A stretch of DNA of 64,000 bases from a virus. Lineage: Duplodnaviria; Heunggongvirae; Uroviricota; Caudoviricetes. Of the stretch, positions 1,245 through 51,256 are shown piece after piece (within the stretch, counting starts at the first letter, position 1; the number at the start of each line of letters is the position of its first letter). The position numbers were made by a program, and so were the translations under genes. Where the stretch lies: IMG/VR virus record IMGVR_UViG_3300042298_002704. One strand, given 5' to 3'. The notes under the pieces were generated by a model. It searched no databases. It saw only the letters and a list, made by a program, of their open reading frames with translations, and had not been told where the DNA came from.

Positions 1245-1650
1245 TTATTTCTTTAATTTTTTGTTCTCTTAAATTTTGCAATTTTTTAATTTGATGGTCA
1301 ATTTCAATTATATCAGAATGTAGAAATACATATCGAAATTCAAACTCATTGAAATTATACCAATCATCATGTTGAACAACGATCGTTAATTCTGAATCTT
1401 TTTTGTTGTACCGATTAAACTCGCAAAAGTGAACTAAGTTTTTTGTCGGTGTAATTTGAAACCCTCGACTGCATAGCCAATCAGCATCTTCCAACCTAAA
1501 TGTCACGGCTCTGAACTGTCTATCAAATAATGACTTATACGATTGTTCAAATGCGCTGTTAAAGGTATAATCTTGGGGTTCAAGGGTTCGGGTTTTGAAA
1601 TCTTTGATTGTAATTGTTTTCCAAGGTAAATCTTGCGGATTTATAAGCAT
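1231..1650 (-). CDS. Hypothetical protein (139 aa)
   Basis: ORF in operon-like packing. Confidence 0.6.
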   Translation of the reverse strand: MLINPQDLPWKTITIKDFKTRTLEPQDYTFNSAFEQSYKSLFDRQFRAVTFRLEDADWLCSRGFQITPTKNLVHFCEFNRYNKKDSELTIVVQHDDWYNFNEFEFRYVFLHSDIIEIDHQIKKLQNLREQKIKEINANH

Positions 1651-1654
1651 AATT

Positions 1655-1882
1655 TCAATTATTGTTATTTTTAATTTGTTCTAACTTTGATGCAAATAAG
1701 GCTACTTCCCAACCAATTTCTTCAACAAATTCACCTACTACTTTACAATAACCTAACCCATTGTTTTGACAATACATTTCTGCTTCTTGCCAATTTAAGG
1801 CTTCAATGTTCGGGCCTTGCCAAACTTTTAATTCACCGTCATTTGGATCAATAGCACGAATTTCAGTTGTAAATTTCTTCAT
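1655..1882 (-). CDS. Hypothetical protein (75 aa)
   Basis: ORF with TAATG stop/start overlap to upstream gene. Confidence 0.6.
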   Translation of the reverse strand: MKKFTTEIRAIDPNDGELKVWQGPNIEALNWQEAEMYCQNNGLGYCKVVGEFVEEIGWEVALFASKLEQIKNNNN

Positions 1883-2157
1883 TAAACATAACCTTCGTTT
1901 TCTTTCATAAATTCTTTTCGGGTTATTGCAATTATGGGTAAATTATCCAAATATGACAAATCAGGATCGGCTTCCAATTTAGTCTTCCAACATTGTTCTA
2001 CTTCATTGAATTCAAAGTCAACGCCCCACTCTCCAGCAGGTCGCCAATAATAATATCCCGAATCCGAAGCAAAATAATTGTGCTGCCTTCGTTCCAACCT
2101 CATTGCGGTTCCGGTCGGGGAACCTATACGAACGTATTTGGGCGGTTTATTTTTCAT
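1882..2157 (-). CDS. Hypothetical protein (91 aa)
   Basis: ORF in operon-like packing. Confidence 0.6.
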   Translation of the reverse strand: MKNKPPKYVRIGSPTGTAMRLERRQHNYFASDSGYYYWRPAGEWGVDFEFNEVEQCWKTKLEADPDLSYLDNLPIIAITRKEFMKENEGYV

Positions 2158-2322: not shown

Positions 2323-3341
2323 AGTGACTTCGATTTTACCTGTTTAAACAATGTTTCAAGATTATGTTTCGATTTTTCTTCTAATTCAACCCACCAGTTT
2401 CCTTTTTTTTCAGCATTACAAATTCCAGTTGGATTATCTTCATTTAAGATAAACTTTCGTTTTTGTGGGTGTCTACGGTTATGAACCCGTAAAATGTTTT
2501 TGAAATTGAACTGAACAAAGTCATCTCCCATAATCCGTTTGGCGATTCTTAAAATTGATTCATCTTCGCCGTGATGGATTAATGAATGGGGCAAAGTTAC
2601 TCCCGATTTTAAAAGTTCACTTGTAAAAACCAAACAACTTCCATCGGCCTTGGGTTCAGTCAATGCTTGGACTTGAATTTTATCGGGACTGATATTATTT
2701 ATTTCATTCATTTGTTCTAAGGACATATAAGATTTTTCAGAGGCAGGATTGTTAAAAATCCAATTTTCATCATCTTGATATGGAATTGATTCAAATAAAG
2801 GATGCGTTATCACGTCCCAACTTTTGTCCCAATTCTTTCTTCCGGCAAAGTTAGCAACATATTTGGGATATTGGCCGGAAACTTGTTCATGTAAAGTTTC
2901 CAAAGCAAATAACGTTTGTTTGGGCCATAGAGAATCCACCTCGTTCCAACAAATAAAGTCATGTGTATTGGTATATTTCCAACATATATCTCTGCGAGAG
3001 TGTGCAATATTATAAAAAGGAACATCATCAAAAATATATGAAATCTTCACATCCAATTCAGATGGTAGTTTACCCCATATCTTTCCAAATTGTTCTTTAA
3101 ATAAAATAAAACCATAGTATTCGTTTATAAATACTCTGCCATTTCCATGCTGTTCATAAAATTTATACCAATCTATTTTTTCAAATTTTTGCTGAAAATT
3201 AAAACATAAATCTATTGTAATATTTTGTTTATTAGTTATTGGTTCAGTCATCTGAATCAGAGATTGAATATGTTCATTGAACATTCCAATTTCATAAAAT
3301 TGAATTAACGACGAAAATACATATTTATTATTTAATTGCAT
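2319..3341 (-). CDS. Glycosyltransferase-like protein (GT-A fold)
   Basis: ICWNEVDSLW (DxD-like), HHGEDESI (GED motif), late RVHNRRHP; lies in sugar gene cluster. Confidence 0.55.
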   Translation of the reverse strand: MQLNNKYVFSSLIQFYEIGMFNEHIQSLIQMTEPITNKQNITIDLCFNFQQKFEKIDWYKFYEQHGNGRVFINEYYGFILFKEQFGKIWGKLPSELDVKISYIFDDVPFYNIAHSRRDICWKYTNTHDFICWNEVDSLWPKQTLFALETLHEQVSGQYPKYVANFAGRKNWDKSWDVITHPLFESIPYQDDENWIFNNPASEKSYMSLEQMNEINNISPDKIQVQALTEPKADGSCLVFTSELLKSGVTLPHSLIHHGEDESILRIAKRIMGDDFVQFNFKNILRVHNRRHPQKRKFILNEDNPTGICNAEKKGNWWVELEEKSKHNLETLFKQVKSKSL

Positions 3342-45864: not shown

Positions 45865-46203
45865 TCAAATTGTAAATTTAGAAATATAGGCAGTGTTGTT
45901 TTCAGCATATACATAAAAATAAGTTCCGGCTAATAGCGCATTTTTTTCAATAGGATGCGAGTTTCCGTTTAAATGAACTATATAACCTATTTTATGTTTT
46001 TGCGACATTTTAGCAGCAGAAAATATGCGTTTAGTCATTTGACTTTCGTCTGAGTTTAAATCGCCAAAACTAAATGTTTTTTGCCACTGAACGTTTGGTT
46101 TATATTTAGGTGCTTTCCACGAGGTATTTATTACCTCGGGAACTTCCCTATCGTTTTCAAACATTAACTTTTTTACAATTTCAAGTAATTTATTTCTGTT
46201 CAC
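45865..46203 (-). CDS. Hypothetical protein (112 aa)
   Basis: N-terminus MNRNKLLEIVKKLMFE; GTGA overlap. Confidence 0.55.
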   Translation of the reverse strand: MNRNKLLEIVKKLMFENDREVPEVINTSWKAPKYKPNVQWQKTFSFGDLNSDESQMTKRIFSAAKMSQKHKIGYIVHLNGNSHPIEKNALLAGTYFYVYAENNTAYISKFTI

Positions 46204-46841
46204 ATTTCTCCCTCCAAGAATTGTTTATATTCATAAATATCTCTAAATAACCGTTCATTTGTAAACTTAGTTTTAATCAAACCTTCAAATTCACTTTCGC
46301 ATATCAAATCATTGTTTATATCAATCAATGTTATACCAAGACCAAAAGGTTTATGTTGGTGTTGAGTGTCAAACATTAATTTAATATATTTTGACATATC
46401 CTTATGATCGATTATTTCTATTTTTTTCACATTTCCGTATTTATCATAATACGGAGTTTCTTTCCTGAATACAATAATATGGGCATAAGGAATATTGTTG
46501 GTCTGAATATTGGCAGTTTCTCCAAGCATCGATTCAAAATAGTTGTTTGCATTTTGTTTGAAGTTTGAAGTTATAAACTTTACACCCAAACAAAAAACCG
46601 AATTGTTATCCTTTACAACGGTTATATCAATATTTTTGTTGTAATATTTTCCAGTTGCCTTAAATTCTTTGTTTCTGTCGCTACAATAAACTTCATATTC
46701 AGAACCATATATCGAACACAACACATCTGCAAGATAGTTATGAATTGGCGAAACTTTTTTGGAAGACCGTTTACCGAACTGATTGTAGTTTTCAAATGAT
46801 TTTTTGACGGACTCGATAAAGTCCAAATGGTTATAGTACAT
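46200..46841 (-). CDS. Putative type II restriction endonuclease (PD-(D/E)XK fold)
   Basis: KNIDITV...LGVKFITSNFKQNANNYFESMLGE; starts on the base after the methyltransferase stop. Confidence 0.55.
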   Translation of the reverse strand: MYYNHLDFIESVKKSFENYNQFGKRSSKKVSPIHNYLADVLCSIYGSEYEVYCSDRNKEFKATGKYYNKNIDITVVKDNNSVFCLGVKFITSNFKQNANNYFESMLGETANIQTNNIPYAHIIVFRKETPYYDKYGNVKKIEIIDHKDMSKYIKLMFDTQHQHKPFGLGITLIDINNDLICESEFEGLIKTKFTNERLFRDIYEYKQFLEGEM

Positions 46842-48974
46842 TTAAAAAAAGTCGTTATCGTTTACAGTTGGTTTTTTATTCTTAGGTTCGTGTTTAGTAT
46901 CGAACGTCCGATTCAATTTGAATTTATTATCAATTGCATACTGAATCCTTAACTTTGCAATTTCAAAATATTCGGGTTCAAGTTCACATCCGATAAACTC
47001 AAACCCCAATAATTTTGCTGCCATTCCTATTGAACCAGAACCTAAGAACGGGTCAAAAACAACTTGTGGATTTGGTGTTTTAAATAACTTCAAAAGGTTC
47101 AGACACAATTGAATTGGTTTTACGGTAACGTGGTTGTTTTTTACGCCCAAATCACGTTCACTCTTAGAAACTTTTGCACAATAATGATAAAGTTGAATAT
47201 CCTGCTCGTCATAATCACATCTTTGCAAAATTTTAGAACAGCCCCCAACACTTGCTTCAACTTCTTTACCAAACGGCTGCGCCTTGTATTTACCATAAAT
47301 TCCATGATGTGGCATAAAGCCATCTTTTCCAGTTTTGCCTACATTATGACTTGATTTCATTGCACCTGATTTACGTTCTCCACTTTGTTCGTCCAAATTA
47401 TCAGCCATTTCAGAATCGACGAAGGTTTGAGATGGGAATCGGCCCAAGGGCGAAGTTCCAACAGCGTAATCACCTTCATATCCGTAAAACTTCGCAGACG
47501 ATTTTGTTCCAAATACTCCGTTTCCACCCAATCTTTTATCAGCATTTGCTTCTAATGAAATCCTGTTCCCGTCAATATCCAAAGCGCCGCACAAACATTC
47601 TTCATCGCCATTTTCATAGGCCAACGTATCATGCAATGCAGAATTCGTCTTATAAGGCTTTTGGAAGACCATTATTGTTTCATTCTGTTGGGCTGACTTC
47701 GTTTCGCAAGTAAAAATGCCAGCAAGATTTTGAACAAAAATTTCGTTTAGTGATTCTAATTTGAGAATTACGTTTGTAAAATTGCGTATTACAGTATTGG
47801 CAATTAACTTTTGTAAATTCTCGTTCAGTAATATCTTTTGTTGCGTGAAGTATTTTATGTTCTCCGTGAGATAATAATTTAAGATTTTCAATTCTGTTAT
47901 CATCTCTGATTTCGTTGATGTGGTGAACATCTTCATTTCTATCCAAATCTCTACCAATATGTTCAGCCATAACTGCCCGATGTTCCAGTATCCATTCAAG
48001 TGGGGTTTTGGGGTTTCTGATAAGTACATATCCATCAGTTCTTGTAAATCGTCCGCCAGTCCATTGTGGATGGTTTTCTCCCTTAAATCCGCGCATAGAT
48101 TCTCCATGACATTTTTTACTACAATATTTCCCAACTTGGCTTGGCGGAGCATAGAATTTACTTCCGCAGTGCAAGCAAAAATTTTTTCGATTTCTTCGAC
48201 AGACATTTGAGCAATATGGCTTCCACGTTGGGTCTGTAATTGTTCTACTTGGAGCAAGATAAAATTTATTTCCGCATTCGAGGCAATCATACCATTTTCC
48301 AAGTCGTTGCTGTGGGTTGTTGTCATTATACATTCTAAAATATCCTTTATATTTTGGGCTAACAATATTCGATTGTCCCAATAAATATCAGGAATTTTTT
48401 GAAAGACACTCACAATTTCTTGGGTCTGTTTCAAAGGAGCGATACTATATTTAAACCCGTCGTATTTTTTGGCGAGATCGGATGAAGGTTGGGTAATTGG
48501 TTGAATTCCAGTTGCAAACTCATTATAACCTTCTCCCCCATTGGAACTTTTATATATTTTACTTCCAACAACTTCCCGTGCTTCACCAAAATATTTGTCC
48601 AAATTTTTTGATAAATCACTTGCCTTCGGAAATGAGCTGGCGAAATACCAATATAAACTTTGTTGTTCAATGAATCCAGAAGAACAAGCATAATATTTAT
48701 TTAGCATTAATTGCCTATCCATTCCAAACATAACAACCCGTCCACCATGTTTCAAGATACGAAACGCTTCAATGAACCATTCTTCCCAAAATTTACCATC
48801 AGGTTGATTCCACTTATTCATGAAATCAACGGCCTTTTTATAATCAGGTTTACCATCTTCTCTGATTATAACTTCACTTCCAAGTGCGTATGGAGGGTCA
48901 GTGAATATCAAATCCACTGAATAATCCCCCATACTTTTCATTTTTTCTAAGCAATCAATATTGAATAAATTCAT
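46842..48974 (-). CDS. Beta-class DNA methyltransferase (710 aa) carrying a 246-codon in-frame insertion
   Basis: DCLEKM, IFTDPPY, HVTVKP, VFDPFLGSGS, FIGCELE; insertion is residues about 185-430. Confidence 0.9.
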   Translation of the reverse strand: MNLFNIDCLEKMKSMGDYSVDLIFTDPPYALGSEVIIREDGKPDYKKAVDFMNKWNQPDGKFWEEWFIEAFRILKHGGRVVMFGMDRQLMLNKYYACSSGFIEQQSLYWYFASSFPKASDLSKNLDKYFGEAREVVGSKIYKSSNGGEGYNEFATGIQPITQPSSDLAKKYDGFKYSIAPLKQTQEIVSVFQKIPDIYWDNRILLAQNIKDILECIMTTTHSNDLENGMIASNAEINFILLQVEQLQTQRGSHIAQMSVEEIEKIFACTAEVNSMLRQAKLGNIVVKNVMENLCADLREKTIHNGLADDLQELMDMYLSETPKPHLNGYWNIGQLWLNILVEIWIEMKMFTTSTKSEMITELKILNYYLTENIKYFTQQKILLNENLQKLIANTVIRNFTNVILKLESLNEIFVQNLAGIFTCETKSAQQNETIMVFQKPYKTNSALHDTLAYENGDEECLCGALDIDGNRISLEANADKRLGGNGVFGTKSSAKFYGYEGDYAVGTSPLGRFPSQTFVDSEMADNLDEQSGERKSGAMKSSHNVGKTGKDGFMPHHGIYGKYKAQPFGKEVEASVGGCSKILQRCDYDEQDIQLYHYCAKVSKSERDLGVKNNHVTVKPIQLCLNLLKLFKTPNPQVVFDPFLGSGSIGMAAKLLGFEFIGCELEPEYFEIAKLRIQYAIDNKFKLNRTFDTKHEPKNKKPTVNDNDFF
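47680..48381 (-). CDS. Zinc-finger HNH homing endonuclease nested out of frame in the methyltransferase (TTG at 48381, or ATG at 48333 after AAGGA)
   Basis: CLEC/CLHC/CQYC and YCSxxC zinc motifs, GENHPQWTGG, EHRAVM...VHHINEIRDDNRIENL...H. Confidence 0.92.
   Translation of the reverse strand: MGQSNIVSPKYKGYFRMYNDNNPQQRLGKWYDCLECGNKFYLAPSRTITDPTWKPYCSNVCRRNRKNFCLHCGSKFYAPPSQVGKYCSKKCHGESMRGFKGENHPQWTGGRFTRTDGYVLIRNPKTPLEWILEHRAVMAEHIGRDLDRNEDVHHINEIRDDNRIENLKLLSHGEHKILHATKDITEREFTKVNCQYCNTQFYKRNSQIRITKRNFCSKSCWHFYLRNEVSPTE
47685..48422 (-). mobile_element. 738-nt dual-coding insertion element in the methyltransferase, encoding an HNH endonuclease in another frame
   Basis: Flanked by diverged duplicates of host sequence (KQT-QEIVSVFQK before, QQ-NETIMVFQK after); removal restores APLKQT|NETIMVFQKP. 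Confidence 0.8.
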
Positions 48975-49171
48975 TTACCAACGTAATCTTTTAAACTTTT
49001 ATAAAAATACATTCCCATACCTAACAATACGAAAAGGGAAAATGATTGCCAATATGTTATTTCATTCCGTTGAAAATAATTTAACCATTGATTTATACAA
49101 AGTTGGAAAATATAGGCACTGATGCTAAATATTGAAATAATAATTAAAATAGAAGTTAGTATTTTATTCAT
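48971..49171 (-). CDS. Small membrane protein (66 aa)
   Basis: Two hydrophobic segments. Confidence 0.55.
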   Translation of the reverse strand: MNKILTSILIIISIFSISAYIFQLCINQWLNYFQRNEITYWQSFSLFVLLGMGMYFYKSLKDYVGK

Positions 49172-49508
49172 ACCTGAACGTTTGAATGTTATTTGGTGAA
49201 ATTGAGTTTAAAATGAAATAAATGGTTTTACAGATGTAATCGATATCAGTATTTTGAACTGTAAATATTTCTGGAAAGAACCTTTGTAAAGGTTCAACCT
49301 TATCAGGAACATTATCATCTGCGCCAATGACCAATTTATTATTCAATATCTTTGAAAGCCATTCATTCAGCGTAATTCCAGATATATCATTCTTTAACAG
49401 TTCAACCTCAAAATGAAGTTTGACTGGTCGAATAACATCGTAAAGGACGTTGAAAATTACGTCAACTTTTACGGTTTCGGTAAGTTCGGTATTTGTTAGT
49501 TTTTTCAT
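49164..49508 (-). CDS. Hypothetical protein (114 aa)
   Basis: ORF in operon-like packing. Confidence 0.55.
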   Translation of the reverse strand: MKKLTNTELTETVKVDVIFNVLYDVIRPVKLHFEVELLKNDISGITLNEWLSKILNNKLVIGADDNVPDKVEPLQRFFPEIFTVQNTDIDYICKTIYFILNSISPNNIQTFRYE

Positions 49509-49510
49509 AA

Positions 49511-51256
49511 TTAACCTTCACAGTGTAAACAATCTGAAAATGTTGAACTTTTCATATTTCTGGATAAAATGGATTCGGTTCTAACATAATAAAGCGATTT
49601 TATACCTTCTTCCCATGCAGTTAAATGAACTTTATTGAACCATTTAGGATCAACATCAGCAGGGAAAAATAAATTTAACGAAATACCTTGATCAACGTAT
49701 TGCTGCCATATAGCAGCATTTTTTACAAGTTCAAGTTGATTTAATTCATAAGCAGTTAAGAACACTTCCTTTTCATCATTAGTCAAAAAATCCAAATGCT
49801 GAACCGAACCTTGATGCTTTACCATTATATCATTCCATAACAATTCAGTATCATATTCTTTATATTTTTTCTGCATCAATTTTTGGAAATGTTTATTTTT
49901 TCTAATAAATGTTCCCTTAGCACTTTTTTGAACCCACGCATTACAAATTATAGGTTCTATTCCTTGCGAAACCCCGCCCGATACAAGAGAGTTAGTAGTT
50001 GTAGGGGCTATTGCAAACAAAGTAGTATTTCTATTATAATCGCACCACTCAGGATTGCCCAATATTTCGCCCCATTTACGATTATAATTGTTACCGTCTA
50101 CTTGAAATTTAGTTCCTATTTTTCTAATCCACGCTTTACTTGTTAAACTATTAAAAGGAATCATTTTAGATTGTAAATAAGTGTGCCAGCCCAAAACTCC
50201 AAGACCTAACAATCTTGCTTTTTTAGCAAAATTAATAGCACTTTCAAATCCAATTTTACCAGAAGCATCTTCTATATATTGCTCCAAATTACAATCCAGA
50301 AATAATAAAGAAAGTTCTATAAATTCTTCATTATCTTTAAACTCATCCCATTTTGTCAAGTTTACGCTTGCCAAATCACACACAACTGTATGTTCAAAAT
50401 CATGCGGGGCCATGATTTCAGTACAAATATTTGTTCCGTCTATTTTTAAATTGCGACGTTTGAAATCGTCTGGTTTATTTTTATTTGCATTATGATAATT
50501 AAAAATATAAGGCTGACCAGTTTTCATTCGGGTAGATAACAATTCGGCCCAAATTTCTCTTGCAATACTATCTCCATTTAAAAGAGATTCATAAAAGTAA
50601 TCGTCTATTGTAACGCAATGATTGACATTCAATGATTGTCGATTTACATCTCCAATGGGCAATCTAATTTTTAAAAATTCTTTTATATCCTTATGCCTAA
50701 TGGGTAAATTTATAGAAATAGCGCCTCGCCTGACCGACCCTTGTGATGTTGCAACTATCGCCGAATCATAAACCTTAATAAACGGAATTGTACCTTCGGT
50801 AAATCCTCCGGTTGAAATGGGTTCTCCACGGCCTCTAATTTTATCGAAAGTTATACCGACTCCTCCTCCCATTTTTGTCAATAGTGCCGTTTCGTGAAGT
50901 TTGTTATAAATTCCGTCAATTGAGTCGGGAACCCTATTGATATAACAACTAATCGTGTATCCTCTGTTTGTACCACAATTTGCTAAAATTGGAGTTGACG
51001 GACATAACCAACCTGCCCACATATAATCAAACCATTTAGTTTTAACTATTTCACAATATTTCGTTATTTGATCATCCGACCATTTTGAGTTTTTAACCAG
51101 CATCTTATTAAGTTGAGTAGCCAATGCCGTAGATACCCTGACATACATTTCTTTTGGCGTTTCGCCATCCAATAAATGTTGCCGTTCTAAGGTTCTCAAC
51201 CCTTCTTCAATCATCCACCCCGGATAATCGTGTCCTTCAATCCAATTATTTATCAT
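49511..51256 (-). CDS. nrdA: Ribonucleotide reductase class Ia alpha subunit (no ATP cone)
   Basis: STPILAN, ISCY, GGGVG, TNICTE, VCDLASVN, IAPTTTNS, SLYY, C-terminal CLHCEG. Confidence 0.96.
   Translation of the reverse strand: MINNWIEGHDYPGWMIEEGLRTLERQHLLDGETPKEMYVRVSTALATQLNKMLVKNSKWSDDQITKYCEIVKTKWFDYMWAGWLCPSTPILANCGTNRGYTISCYINRVPDSIDGIYNKLHETALLTKMGGGVGITFDKIRGRGEPISTGGFTEGTIPFIKVYDSAIVATSQGSVRRGAISINLPIRHKDIKEFLKIRLPIGDVNRQSLNVNHCVTIDDYFYESLLNGDSIAREIWAELLSTRMKTGQPYIFNYHNANKNKPDDFKRRNLKIDGTNICTEIMAPHDFEHTVVCDLASVNLTKWDEFKDNEEFIELSLLFLDCNLEQYIEDASGKIGFESAINFAKKARLLGLGVLGWHTYLQSKMIPFNSLTSKAWIRKIGTKFQVDGNNYNRKWGEILGNPEWCDYNRNTTLFAIAPTTTNSLVSGGVSQGIEPIICNAWVQKSAKGTFIRKNKHFQKLMQKKYKEYDTELLWNDIMVKHQGSVQHLDFLTNDEKEVFLTAYELNQLELVKNAAIWQQYVDQGISLNLFFPADVDPKWFNKVHLTAWEEGIKSLYYVRTESILSRNMKSSTFSDCLHCEG

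Follow-up and report, generated by a model that had tools for sequence, protein, structure and literature searches.

The stretch of DNA analysed here (the window; 64,000 nt of a Caudoviricetes virus, IMG/VR record IMGVR_UViG_3300042298_002704) carries on its minus strand a DNA methyltransferase gene with a second gene hidden inside it (Table 1). The 710-aa ORF matches PF01555 (N6_N4_Mtase) with an E-value of 2.8e-29 (Pfam; score 103 bits against a cut-off of 26.7) as well as DNA methyltransferase families in PHROGs, and its motif order, DPPY towards the N-terminus and FxGxG towards the C-terminus, is that of the beta-class N6/N4 enzymes. In the AF2 model, the methyltransferase core outside the insert is predicted with pLDDT values of 80-98, and the insert part consists of long low-confidence helices (pLDDT 35-57). 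A megablast search of the gene and the 24 kb around it against a phage collection gave no match.

Table 1. Features of the methyltransferase locus in the window
Feature	Coordinates	Strand	Basis
Host gene, beta-class N6/N4 DNA methyltransferase, 710 aa	46842..48974	minus	ORF listing and PF01555
Motif IV, DPPY, N-terminal, residues 26-29	48899..48888	minus	
First, diverged motif copy, QEIVSVFQK, residues 185-193, 5' end of insert	48396..48422	minus	alignment
Mobile insert, 738 nt, 246 codons, residues 185-430	47685..48422	minus	protein alignment and nucleotide junctions against empty alleles
SD-like AAAGGA, 9 nt upstream of the HNH ATG, inside the methyltransferase frame	48343..48348	minus	sequence
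Hidden HNH endonuclease gene, 217 aa from ATG 48333	47680..48333	minus	HNH_3, phrog_20891, alignment
Second, native motif copy, NETIMVFQKP, residues 431-440	47655..47684	minus	identical to the consensus of empty alleles
AdoMet motif X/I (FxGxG), FLGSGS, C-terminal, residues 643-648	47048..47031	minus	
Probable type II restriction endonuclease, 213-aa ORF starting directly after the methyltransferase gene	46200..46841	minus	predicted-structure match

The insert begins at Q185 and ends at Q430, followed by N431; its length is divisible by three, it has 0 stops in the methyltransferase frame, and it is absent from the empty alleles L085, L084 and L087, for which nucleotide junctions were compared. 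The original prediction had placed it at 48422..47685 (246 codons), bracketed by diverged duplicates of host sequence. These exact bounds were upheld, and the duplicates are indeed seen, QEIVSVFQK at the start of the insert and NETIMVFQKP after it. The motif duplication was found at all embedded loci listed. In the AF2 model the second copy forms a core beta strand (strand 433-438, pLDDT 83-96), a placement that is biased because the empty alleles in the alignment align there, and the first copy falls in a low-confidence region. As a separate observation, P0015 carries two more in-frame inserts.

A complete HNH ORF takes up almost all of the insert and runs to its 3' edge; counted from the 217-aa start, just 89 nt of the insert remain outside the ORF, all of them 5' of it. 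The ORF matches HNH_3 (Pfam, E 2.7e-09) and phage HNH families, the best being phrog_20891 (PHROGs, E 6e-23), and its protein layout comprises three CxxC...CSxxC zinc fingers and an HNH core; a search against PDB sequences gave no match. Each HNH codon begins on the third base of a methyltransferase codon, the frames differing by an offset of 2. Over the methyltransferase gene, the HNH frame is open only across codons 196-430, and the third frame contains 29 stops across the HNH ORF. The ORF listing agrees with the earlier claim that a zinc-finger HNH ORF (47680..48381) lies on the same strand, in another frame, within the 710-aa methyltransferase, and the sequence agrees with the claim that its stop, TGA at 47682..47680, is built from the host codons AAT-GAA (N431-E432).

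The start of the hidden gene had been taken as the upstream in-frame TTG 48381, which would yield 233 aa (ORF 47680..48381, minus strand). This part has to be revised, as ATG 48333 (217 aa) is more likely, because the homologous ATG is the start in the distant copy L003 and a Shine-Dalgarno-like (SD-like) motif precedes the ATG in both, AAAGAGG in L003 being homologous to AAAGGA in the window. Of 59 distinct embedded elements, 45 have one of the words GGAG, GAGG or AGGA 4-17 nt ahead of the HNH start (background 10 %), and the conserved SD is also present in elements of the Bipolar/ShiLan type. A sigma-70 promoter scan found sites no more numerous than in shuffles, and the Bacteroidota -7 motif TAnnTTTG is missing from the minus-strand sequence immediately ahead of the HNH start, its nearest copy lying at 48725-48732; a separate HNH promoter is therefore not claimed.

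It had been predicted that empty alleles would read APLKQT/NETIM (the slash marks the junction), and that homologues without the HNH motifs would lack the 246-aa segment. This is what was found: hundreds of homologues of 440-500 aa read PLKQT/NETIM, continuing as ...PLKQT/NETIMVFQKP... In run X17, another lake metagenome, a phage closely related to that of the window has a contig in which 4 letters stand in place of 47685..48426; 738 nt are missing at the predicted place, and the contig reads PLKQT/NETIM. Similarly, L085 and L002, which are 88-92 % identical around the gene, differ in that L085 is without exactly the insert. Between the window and L002, a second phage, the insert is 91.5 % identical and the flanks are 75 % and 67 % identical, with dS of 0.22 for the insert against 1.34 and 1.60 for the flanks, an apparent youth that is somewhat inflated because stop avoidance places some constraint on HNH synonymous sites. 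The insert is younger than the host gene. A scan of genome contigs yielded 3 loci only. L006 is a decayed case: its N-terminal fragment extends no further than the first motif copy, and the HNH that comes next contains a stop in the frame of that fragment.

The original prediction also held that selection keeps the host frame open, and it proposed counting stops in related filled alleles and comparing dN/dS between frames. Amongst 52 distinct methylase-embedded relatives with GC of 27-70 %, no stop was observed in the methyltransferase frame against 234.7 expected, although these copies are not fully independent because the elements are related by descent. The AT-rich subset of embedded elements likewise has 0 stops against 88 expected. 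In the third frame of the same 52 elements 530 stops were observed (493 expected), and 16 non-embedded, free-standing relatives contain 87 (72.8 expected). Wherever both flanks were identified, the downstream methyltransferase half lies in the same frame (52/52 distinct elements). For the window copy, an exact calculation conditioned on the HNH protein gives a chance of 4e-6 for the open frame with window codon usage (9 stops expected) and 1.4e-3 with the codon usage of the ORF itself. The naive estimate of 1e-6 to 1e-8 made beforehand is hence somewhat too small for one copy, however its conclusion stands, carried by the 52 copies. By frame, omega values of 0.28 (HNH), 0.77 (methyltransferase, stop-free across the insert) and 1.3 (third frame) were obtained. 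Purifying selection acts on the HNH reading of the insert and not on its methyltransferase reading, in which stops are nonetheless avoided.

The ORF that follows the methyltransferase gene showed no match in Pfam and NCBIfam and only a chance match to PDB sequences; its predicted structure resembles a 'putative restriction endonuclease' cluster in ESM Atlas (TM 0.92) and the XhoI/PaeR7I family (TM 0.75), and similarity at this level suggests that it is probably a type II restriction endonuclease. At the same position, L002 and L085 have a PF15515 MvaI_BcnI enzyme (E 7.6e-48 in L002). With such a neighbour, the methyltransferase would be the protecting half of a phage restriction-modification module and probably has to remain active.

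A hidden, out-of-frame HNH endonuclease has been described as the ShiLan domain in the mycobacteriophage DNA methylase gp65 (Gosselin et al. 2023, PMC9957025; Arsenault, Gosselin and Gogarten 2025, PMC11855218). The HNH protein of the window and the ORF hidden in the methylase of Mycobacterium phage Bipolar share 36 % identity (E 4e-31), and the Bipolar insert is 99.5 % identical to that of phage ShiLan gp65. The original prediction had already named this parallel; it proved correct and closer than supposed, with a homologous HNH, a homologous site and the same methyltransferase family. Both systems involve PF01555 enzymes interrupted in the LKPxxEPIxxxxKP strand motif, with a duplication of ~11 residues in which the insert start resembles the host sequence just after the insert. 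They also share the frame offset (HNH codon first base on host codon third base), an HNH stop at the 3' junction, a host frame without stops, a patchy distribution and inserts less diverged than the host genes. Judged by this homology, the window element is a true relative of the ShiLan domain and belongs to a kind published in 2023-2025, not to a new kind.

The two nevertheless differ in several respects. The insert has 246 codons here and 202 in ShiLan, and the HNH here carries a third, N-terminal zinc finger, unlike ShiLan. Its start is an ATG 90 nt into the insert, whereas ShiLan uses a GTG at nt 18, and its stop is a TGA made from host codons, in contrast to a TAA inside the insert. The window comes from an AT-rich lake-water phage with a GC content of 36 %, against 64 % for ShiLan, and in an AT-rich genome the open frame is statistically far more telling (the expected stops number 9 here and 2.7 in Bipolar). 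A probable restriction enzyme gene stands next to the methyltransferase here, unlike in ShiLan. The ShiLan work did not find a ribosome-binding site and proposed leaderless initiation, whereas the present survey finds a conserved SD, the Bipolar/ShiLan type included. What is new here is the conserved Shine-Dalgarno before the hidden start, the conserved host-motif duplication and the adjacent restriction-enzyme gene, and the earlier statement that this instance extends the ShiLan principle is therefore fair. A second out-of-frame HNH-like ORF, in the divergent actinophage methylase Pacc40 gp60 (PMC11855218, section 3.6), likewise lies in the alternate frame of an insert read through by the methylase; by its description, the methylase family member, the site and the nuclease (less certain there) are different.

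Some well-known arrangements share single traits with this locus. The intronless homing genes of T-even phages (SegA-G, MobE, split nrd, gene 39/60) are nuclease genes without intron or intein that spread to alleles lacking them. They lie in or next to the targeted gene, either between genes or splitting the host gene into separately translated pieces, whereas here the host gene remains a single ORF by overprinting. In phage lambda, Rz1 is a complete gene with its own ribosome-binding site nested within Rz in another frame of the same strand. Rz and Rz1 encode proteins that work together, and selection acts at the protein level on each of the two frames; at the present locus, by contrast, the overlap as read in the host frame looks like filler (omega 0.77).

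In our reading the insert is very probably a ShiLan-type homing element, that is, an HNH gene of free-standing style lodged in a phage methyltransferase gene with no intron or intein around it. Ribosomes would start within the methyltransferase mRNA at ATG 48333, behind the SD-like motif, and so produce the 217-aa HNH. During mixed infection it may cut or nick the conserved motif-coding sequence of insert-free alleles (...AAACAGACC/AATGAAAC...), and repair would then copy the 738-nt element into the cut allele. Pointing indirectly to such homing are the presence and absence of the insert in near-isogenic DNA, its younger age compared with the flanks, and the omega of 0.28. Survival of the host gene would follow from the length of the element, divisible by three, and from its lack of stops in the host frame: translation would continue through it and give a 710-aa enzyme that may still be active. 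The 246 extra residues would then loop out as a flexible stretch, with the catalytic half on the N-terminal side and the target-recognition/AdoMet half on the other, and the duplicated copy of the interrupted beta-strand motif would keep a complete strand at the junction.

If the insert were instead an unrecognised self-splicing intron, almost filled by the ORF and removed from the mRNA, the open host frame would be irrelevant. HNH genes are common intron passengers and the 5' end of the insert resembles the 3' exon, a resemblance that the ShiLan authors found reminiscent of group I introns (PMC11855218, section 3.1). However, no intron was found with Rfam at E up to 1 across 46000..50000, the sole match being a chance CRISPR-repeat on the other strand; no catalytic RNA core (P3-P9) of a group I intron was seen flanking or overlapping the ORF, and of the 89 nt of the insert outside the ORF none follow it. 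Moreover, an intron would be free to have any length and to carry stops in the host frame, whereas all 52 distinct elements with both flanks identified are in frame, with 0 stops against 235 expected, which makes splicing highly improbable. The original prediction had likewise noted the lack of intein junction residues and that hardly any sequence outside the HNH is left to house a group I core, and the Rfam result and the junction residues, with no C/S/T or Asn at the required places, are in line with it. An intein was rejected on the same residues (Q185...Q430, N431; no C/S/T as first residue, no terminal His-Asn followed by C/S/T) and on the AF2 helices, which show no Hint-like fold. Ribosomal bypass from the first to the second motif copy was also rejected, there being no stop after the putative take-off site, and it would leave the stop avoidance of the whole insert unexplained. 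We know of no precedent for a ribosomal hop of 738 nt.

It is also conceivable, though very unlikely, that the enzyme has come to benefit from the insert as read in the methyltransferase frame, which would then be retained as a domain in its own right, perhaps a helical arm with a role in dimerisation, specificity or immunity to the HNH. The frame is open in every embedded copy, AF2 draws long helices and the duplicated motif is retained in very diverged elements. Against this, omega in that frame is near neutral (0.77, versus 0.28 in the HNH frame), the window and L003 are only 36 % identical in it, the shared part lying under the conserved HNH core, the pLDDT of the insert is only 35-57, and most homologues work without the insert. 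A filled methyltransferase that is dead and a mere carrier, its frame open from recent insertion or to avoid polarity on downstream genes, would suit an insert that is young relative to the gene, and the methylase is dispensable in mycobacteriophages according to the ShiLan authors (PMC11855218, section 4.1). Nevertheless, even HNH copies with as little as 35 % identity are lodged in unbroken methyltransferase ORFs that keep both DPPY and the C-terminal motifs in frame, and a restriction enzyme gene follows here, in L002 and in L085, so that loss of methylation would be costly. The decayed L006 shows what loss looks like, and a dead carrier appears extremely unlikely. The homing element read through by its host gene remains our preferred interpretation.

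The ShiLan arrangement is thus not limited to high-GC actinophages, where an open alternate frame is cheap; AT-rich freshwater phages carry it too, and there 246 stop-free codons need constant selection. The survey puts numbers to the published idea, as 52 distinct embedded elements have 0 stops where 235 are expected and free-standing relatives behave as expected, and the conserved ribosome-binding site corrects one published point. The probable restriction-enzyme neighbour offers a concrete reason for the host enzyme staying alive. For annotation, gene callers miss such hidden genes, and the extra methylase 'domain' should not be taken as a domain. It is possible, though doubtful at present, that read-through HNH elements are no peculiarity of mycobacteriophages but an old, phylum-spanning mobile class with a conserved design, in which the frame offset is fixed, an internal start follows a Shine-Dalgarno, the stop falls at the acidic host-motif codon and the strand duplication is maintained and functional. 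If so, L091, with a second element at another site in the same enzyme family, and L083, an intein with its middle overprinted by a related HNH, would be further cases, and the strand duplication could let the enzyme fold around the insert, or could shift the target spacing such that the filled allele resists the nuclease that it encodes.

The methyltransferase gene and the HNH gene nested within it were found exactly as the original prediction had described them, in their ORFs, families and frames as well as in a stop codon taken from host codons. The methyltransferase carries a DPPY motif close to its N-terminus and FLGSGS close to its C-terminus, and its frame 0 has no stop throughout. The HNH frame is open only at codons 196-430 of the methyltransferase gene, the third frame contains 29 stops over the HNH ORF, and the HNH ends in a TGA to which host codon N431 supplies the T and E432 the GA. 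Three CxxC...CSxxC zinc fingers are present in the HNH ORF, which matches phage HNH families with E-values down to 6e-23.

Coordinates, strand and assignment of the nested genes and their neighbour in the window
Feature	Position	Strand	Assignment
Methyltransferase ORF, 710 aa	46842..48974	-	PF01555 N6/N4 DNA methyltransferase, E 2.8e-29
HNH ORF, 233 aa, frame other than methyltransferase's	47680..48381	-	Pfam HNH_3, E 2.7e-09
213-aa ORF, starts right after methyltransferase gene end	46200..46841	-	putative type II restriction endonuclease

A search of 5.8 billion proteins detected hundreds of homologues without the insert (440-500 aa, 55-73% identity), in which the two halves are joined directly, ...YSIAPLKQT being followed by NETIMVFQKPYKT..., and two that bear it: P0001 (727 aa; locus L002, from a syntenic phage contig) and P0027 (763 aa; locus L003), a far more distant gene at 43% identity. 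All three copies have an insert of exactly 246 codons that leaves the host frame open and contains the HNH at an identical relative frame. Presence and absence of the insert in nearly identical DNA was observed twice. Loci L085/L086 share the gene order of L002 (RNR, small ORF, methylase, methylase, MvaI_BcnI nuclease, SNase, dUTPase) and 88-92% identity with it on either side, precisely the 738 nt being missing. When contigs from four lake-water metagenomes were compared with the window, a 13.9-kb contig of run X17, from a close relative of the window phage, skipped 47685..48426 with four letters in between; its junction reads PLKQT-NETIM, the empty allele that had been predicted. In the same relative, unrelated sequence of about equal length takes the place of window stretches 47440-47566, 48484-48640 and 47122-47137 (-) of the methyltransferase; these segments are mosaic and variable, and one falls within the presumed target-recognition region. 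An additional ~1.1 kb separates its methyltransferase start from the upstream gene, a place at which L002 and L085 carry another methyltransferase gene.

The exact chance of zero host-frame stops was computed with the HNH protein sequence fixed and codon usage taken from the long ORFs of the window. The window copy would be expected to contain 9.0 stops (chance of none 4e-6), that of L002 7.35 (1e-4) and that of L003 6.90 (3e-5). For a broader view, 80 viral contigs encoding HNH relatives were collected and classified, elements being termed embedded where both methyltransferase halves flank them in the frame that lies one base beyond that of the HNH. The claim that the host frame stays open beyond chance held up, with 0 stops against 234.7 expected in 52 distinct embedded elements (GC 27-70%), and 0 against 88 in 12 embedded elements whose DNA has less than 50% GC. 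The third frame of the same 52 elements contains 530 stops (493 expected) and 16 relatives outside any methyltransferase contain 87 (72.8 expected); both counts are near expectation. The model is therefore calibrated, and it is specifically in the embedded state that stops are absent. The downstream methyltransferase half is in the same frame in every one of the 52. Embedded copies share ancestry, but since they have diverged down to ~35% protein identity, the open frame is maintained and not merely inherited. The most extreme single case is an embedded element at L018:2316-3680 (IMG/VR UViG_3300028805_000155), in DNA of only 27% GC, with 0 host-frame stops against 11.8 expected (P 2e-9); its open span begins past the N-terminal methyltransferase match, so this gene may be interrupted upstream.

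Between the window and L002 the insert is 91.5% identical, as compared with 75% and 67% for the flanking exons, and most of the remaining DNA of the two phages does not align. Because dS (Nei-Gojobori) is 0.22 in the insert, taken in the HNH frame, against 1.34 and 1.60 in the two exons, the insert is several-fold younger than the gene carrying it, as it would be had it moved from one lineage to another. Omega over the insert in this pair is lowest in the HNH frame (0.28), higher in the methyltransferase frame (0.77) and highest in the third (1.3). Purifying selection acts on the nuclease, and at the amino-acid level the host-frame reading evolves almost neutrally.

In an AF2 model of the 710-aa protein built on 73 aligned sequences, the methyltransferase core is confident (pLDDT 80-98) and residues 179-430 form low-confidence stretches of long helix (pLDDT 35-57), a predicted picture that agrees with the published extruded-loop view of the ShiLan insert. 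The second motif copy (433-438) is modelled as the core strand and the first as disordered, a choice biased by the empty alleles in the alignment, which match the second copy. At the nucleotide level both junctions resemble the empty target in mutated form: the upstream one retains AAACAGACC and is divergent beyond, while the downstream one, AACAG followed by AATGAAAC, equals the target minus a Thr codon. In both copies, the halves carried by the element retain E/D, a hydrophobic run and A-x-K-P even where the elements are otherwise very diverged, and hence seem maintained. The duplication may serve folding, immunity to self-cleavage, or both.

The HNH of L003 starts at an ATG homologous to ATG 48333 of the window, and both starts follow a purine-rich SD-like motif (AAAGGA, 9 nt before the ATG, in the window; AAAGAGG in L003). 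GGAG, GAGG or AGGA occurs 4-17 nt ahead of a start codon in 45 of 59 distinct embedded elements, against a background of 10% in the same genes, and in most of those 45 the first CxxC follows 4-6 codons after the start. The form seen most often is TTGGAGGCCCGTTT-ATG, and that of the Bipolar/ShiLan type is CTGGAGGACGA-GTG. A separate promoter for the hidden HNH was looked for and none was found. The conserved motif suggests that the HNH is translated from the methyltransferase mRNA by ordinary initiation at an internal site. This disagrees with the ShiLan paper, which detected no ribosome-binding site and considered leaderless initiation likely (PMC11855218).

The 213-aa ORF has no sequence-family matches; however, its Atlas model resembles a 'putative restriction endonuclease' cluster (TM 0.92) and the XhoI/PaeR7I family (TM 0.75). 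The same position in L002 and L085 is occupied by a clear MvaI_BcnI restriction enzyme unrelated to it, and the nuclease of a putative phage R-M module thus appears to have been swapped. A methylase guarding against a neighbouring nuclease could presumably not be lost cheaply, which would account for the pressure on it to stay readable.

The reading of the insert as a hidden HNH element over which the host frame is kept open gains support from the empty alleles, the stop avoidance and the ShiLan homology. That the host-frame product is instead a co-opted domain is improbable, given its omega of 0.77 and poor conservation. A spliced intron is more improbable still: there are no RNA family matches, almost all of the insert is coding, and splicing would need no preserved downstream frame, whereas frame preservation is universal and stops are avoided. 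An intein is negligible, as the residues at the junctions do not fit one and a Hint fold is lacking. Just as doubtful as the intron is a dead carrier gene, because the flanks stay intact over deep divergence and the nuclease neighbour would make loss of the methylase costly. Actual decay is exemplified at L006:1984-3142 (likewise L007 and L008). There, a 162-aa N-terminal methyltransferase fragment ends just past the first motif copy and is followed by a free three-finger HNH gene with a stop in the fragment's frame; the next ORF is unrelated, with a DCPW motif and possibly MT-A70-like, and the C-terminal methyltransferase half is absent downstream. The locus represents a decayed or split form of the arrangement.

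The ShiLan domain entered the literature as a puzzling insert of mycobacteriophage methylases that moves horizontally (PMC9957025) and was subsequently recognised as an out-of-frame HNH (PMC11855218). The best phage-database match of the window methyltransferase is the methylase of Mycobacterium phage Bipolar, with an alignment running through the insert; it contains a hidden HNH ORF 36% identical to that of the window (E 4e-31). The Bipolar insert is 99.5% identical to ShiLan gp65 and is also found in Mantra and Starcevich, two phages that the ShiLan paper mentions (PMC11855218). Bipolar and window elements share the insertion site (LKPxxE-xxxxAxKP, insert, xPxx(E/D)-PxxxARKP), the motif duplication and the frame offset. 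Owing to these features and the HNH homology, the window element is of the same family as the ShiLan element and not a mere analogue, which bears out the parallel drawn in the original prediction. Unlike the ShiLan type, it has an additional N-terminal zinc finger, an insert of 246 instead of 202 codons, an ATG start deeper in the insert and a stop borrowed from host codons, and it resides in AT-rich DNA of lake-water metagenomes.

Related arrangements were seen elsewhere. At L083:571-3876 (IMG/VR UViG_3300005264_001333), a 1101-aa family-A DNA polymerase ORF has an intein-like insert (start CLAKGTLIV, end FLVHNCS), the middle of which is overprinted by a 206-aa HNH ORF (2387..3007) 29% identical to that of the window; the frame offset differs from the window's, and the polymerase frame has 0 stops there against ~11 expected. 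This would be an intein with its endonuclease encoded out of frame. L091:1001-3691 (ENA ERZ27300140 k141_366001; P0085) encodes a methyltransferase of the same family, 50% identical to the window's, with a different hidden zinc-finger/HNH ORF (1435..2076, 213 aa) at another site, ~window residue 128, with the same frame offset and an open host frame. P0015, a 657-aa homologue, has two more in-frame low-complexity inserts at other sites (alignment A1 columns 136-290 and 1112-1260), which look like out-of-frame filler.

The window element is thus an added case of the published ShiLan-type hidden HNH. Its analysis contributes an instance from AT-rich DNA for which an empty allele occurs naturally, a wide survey in which stop avoidance was tested with a calibrated model, an internal SD that is conserved, and a putative restriction-modification context.
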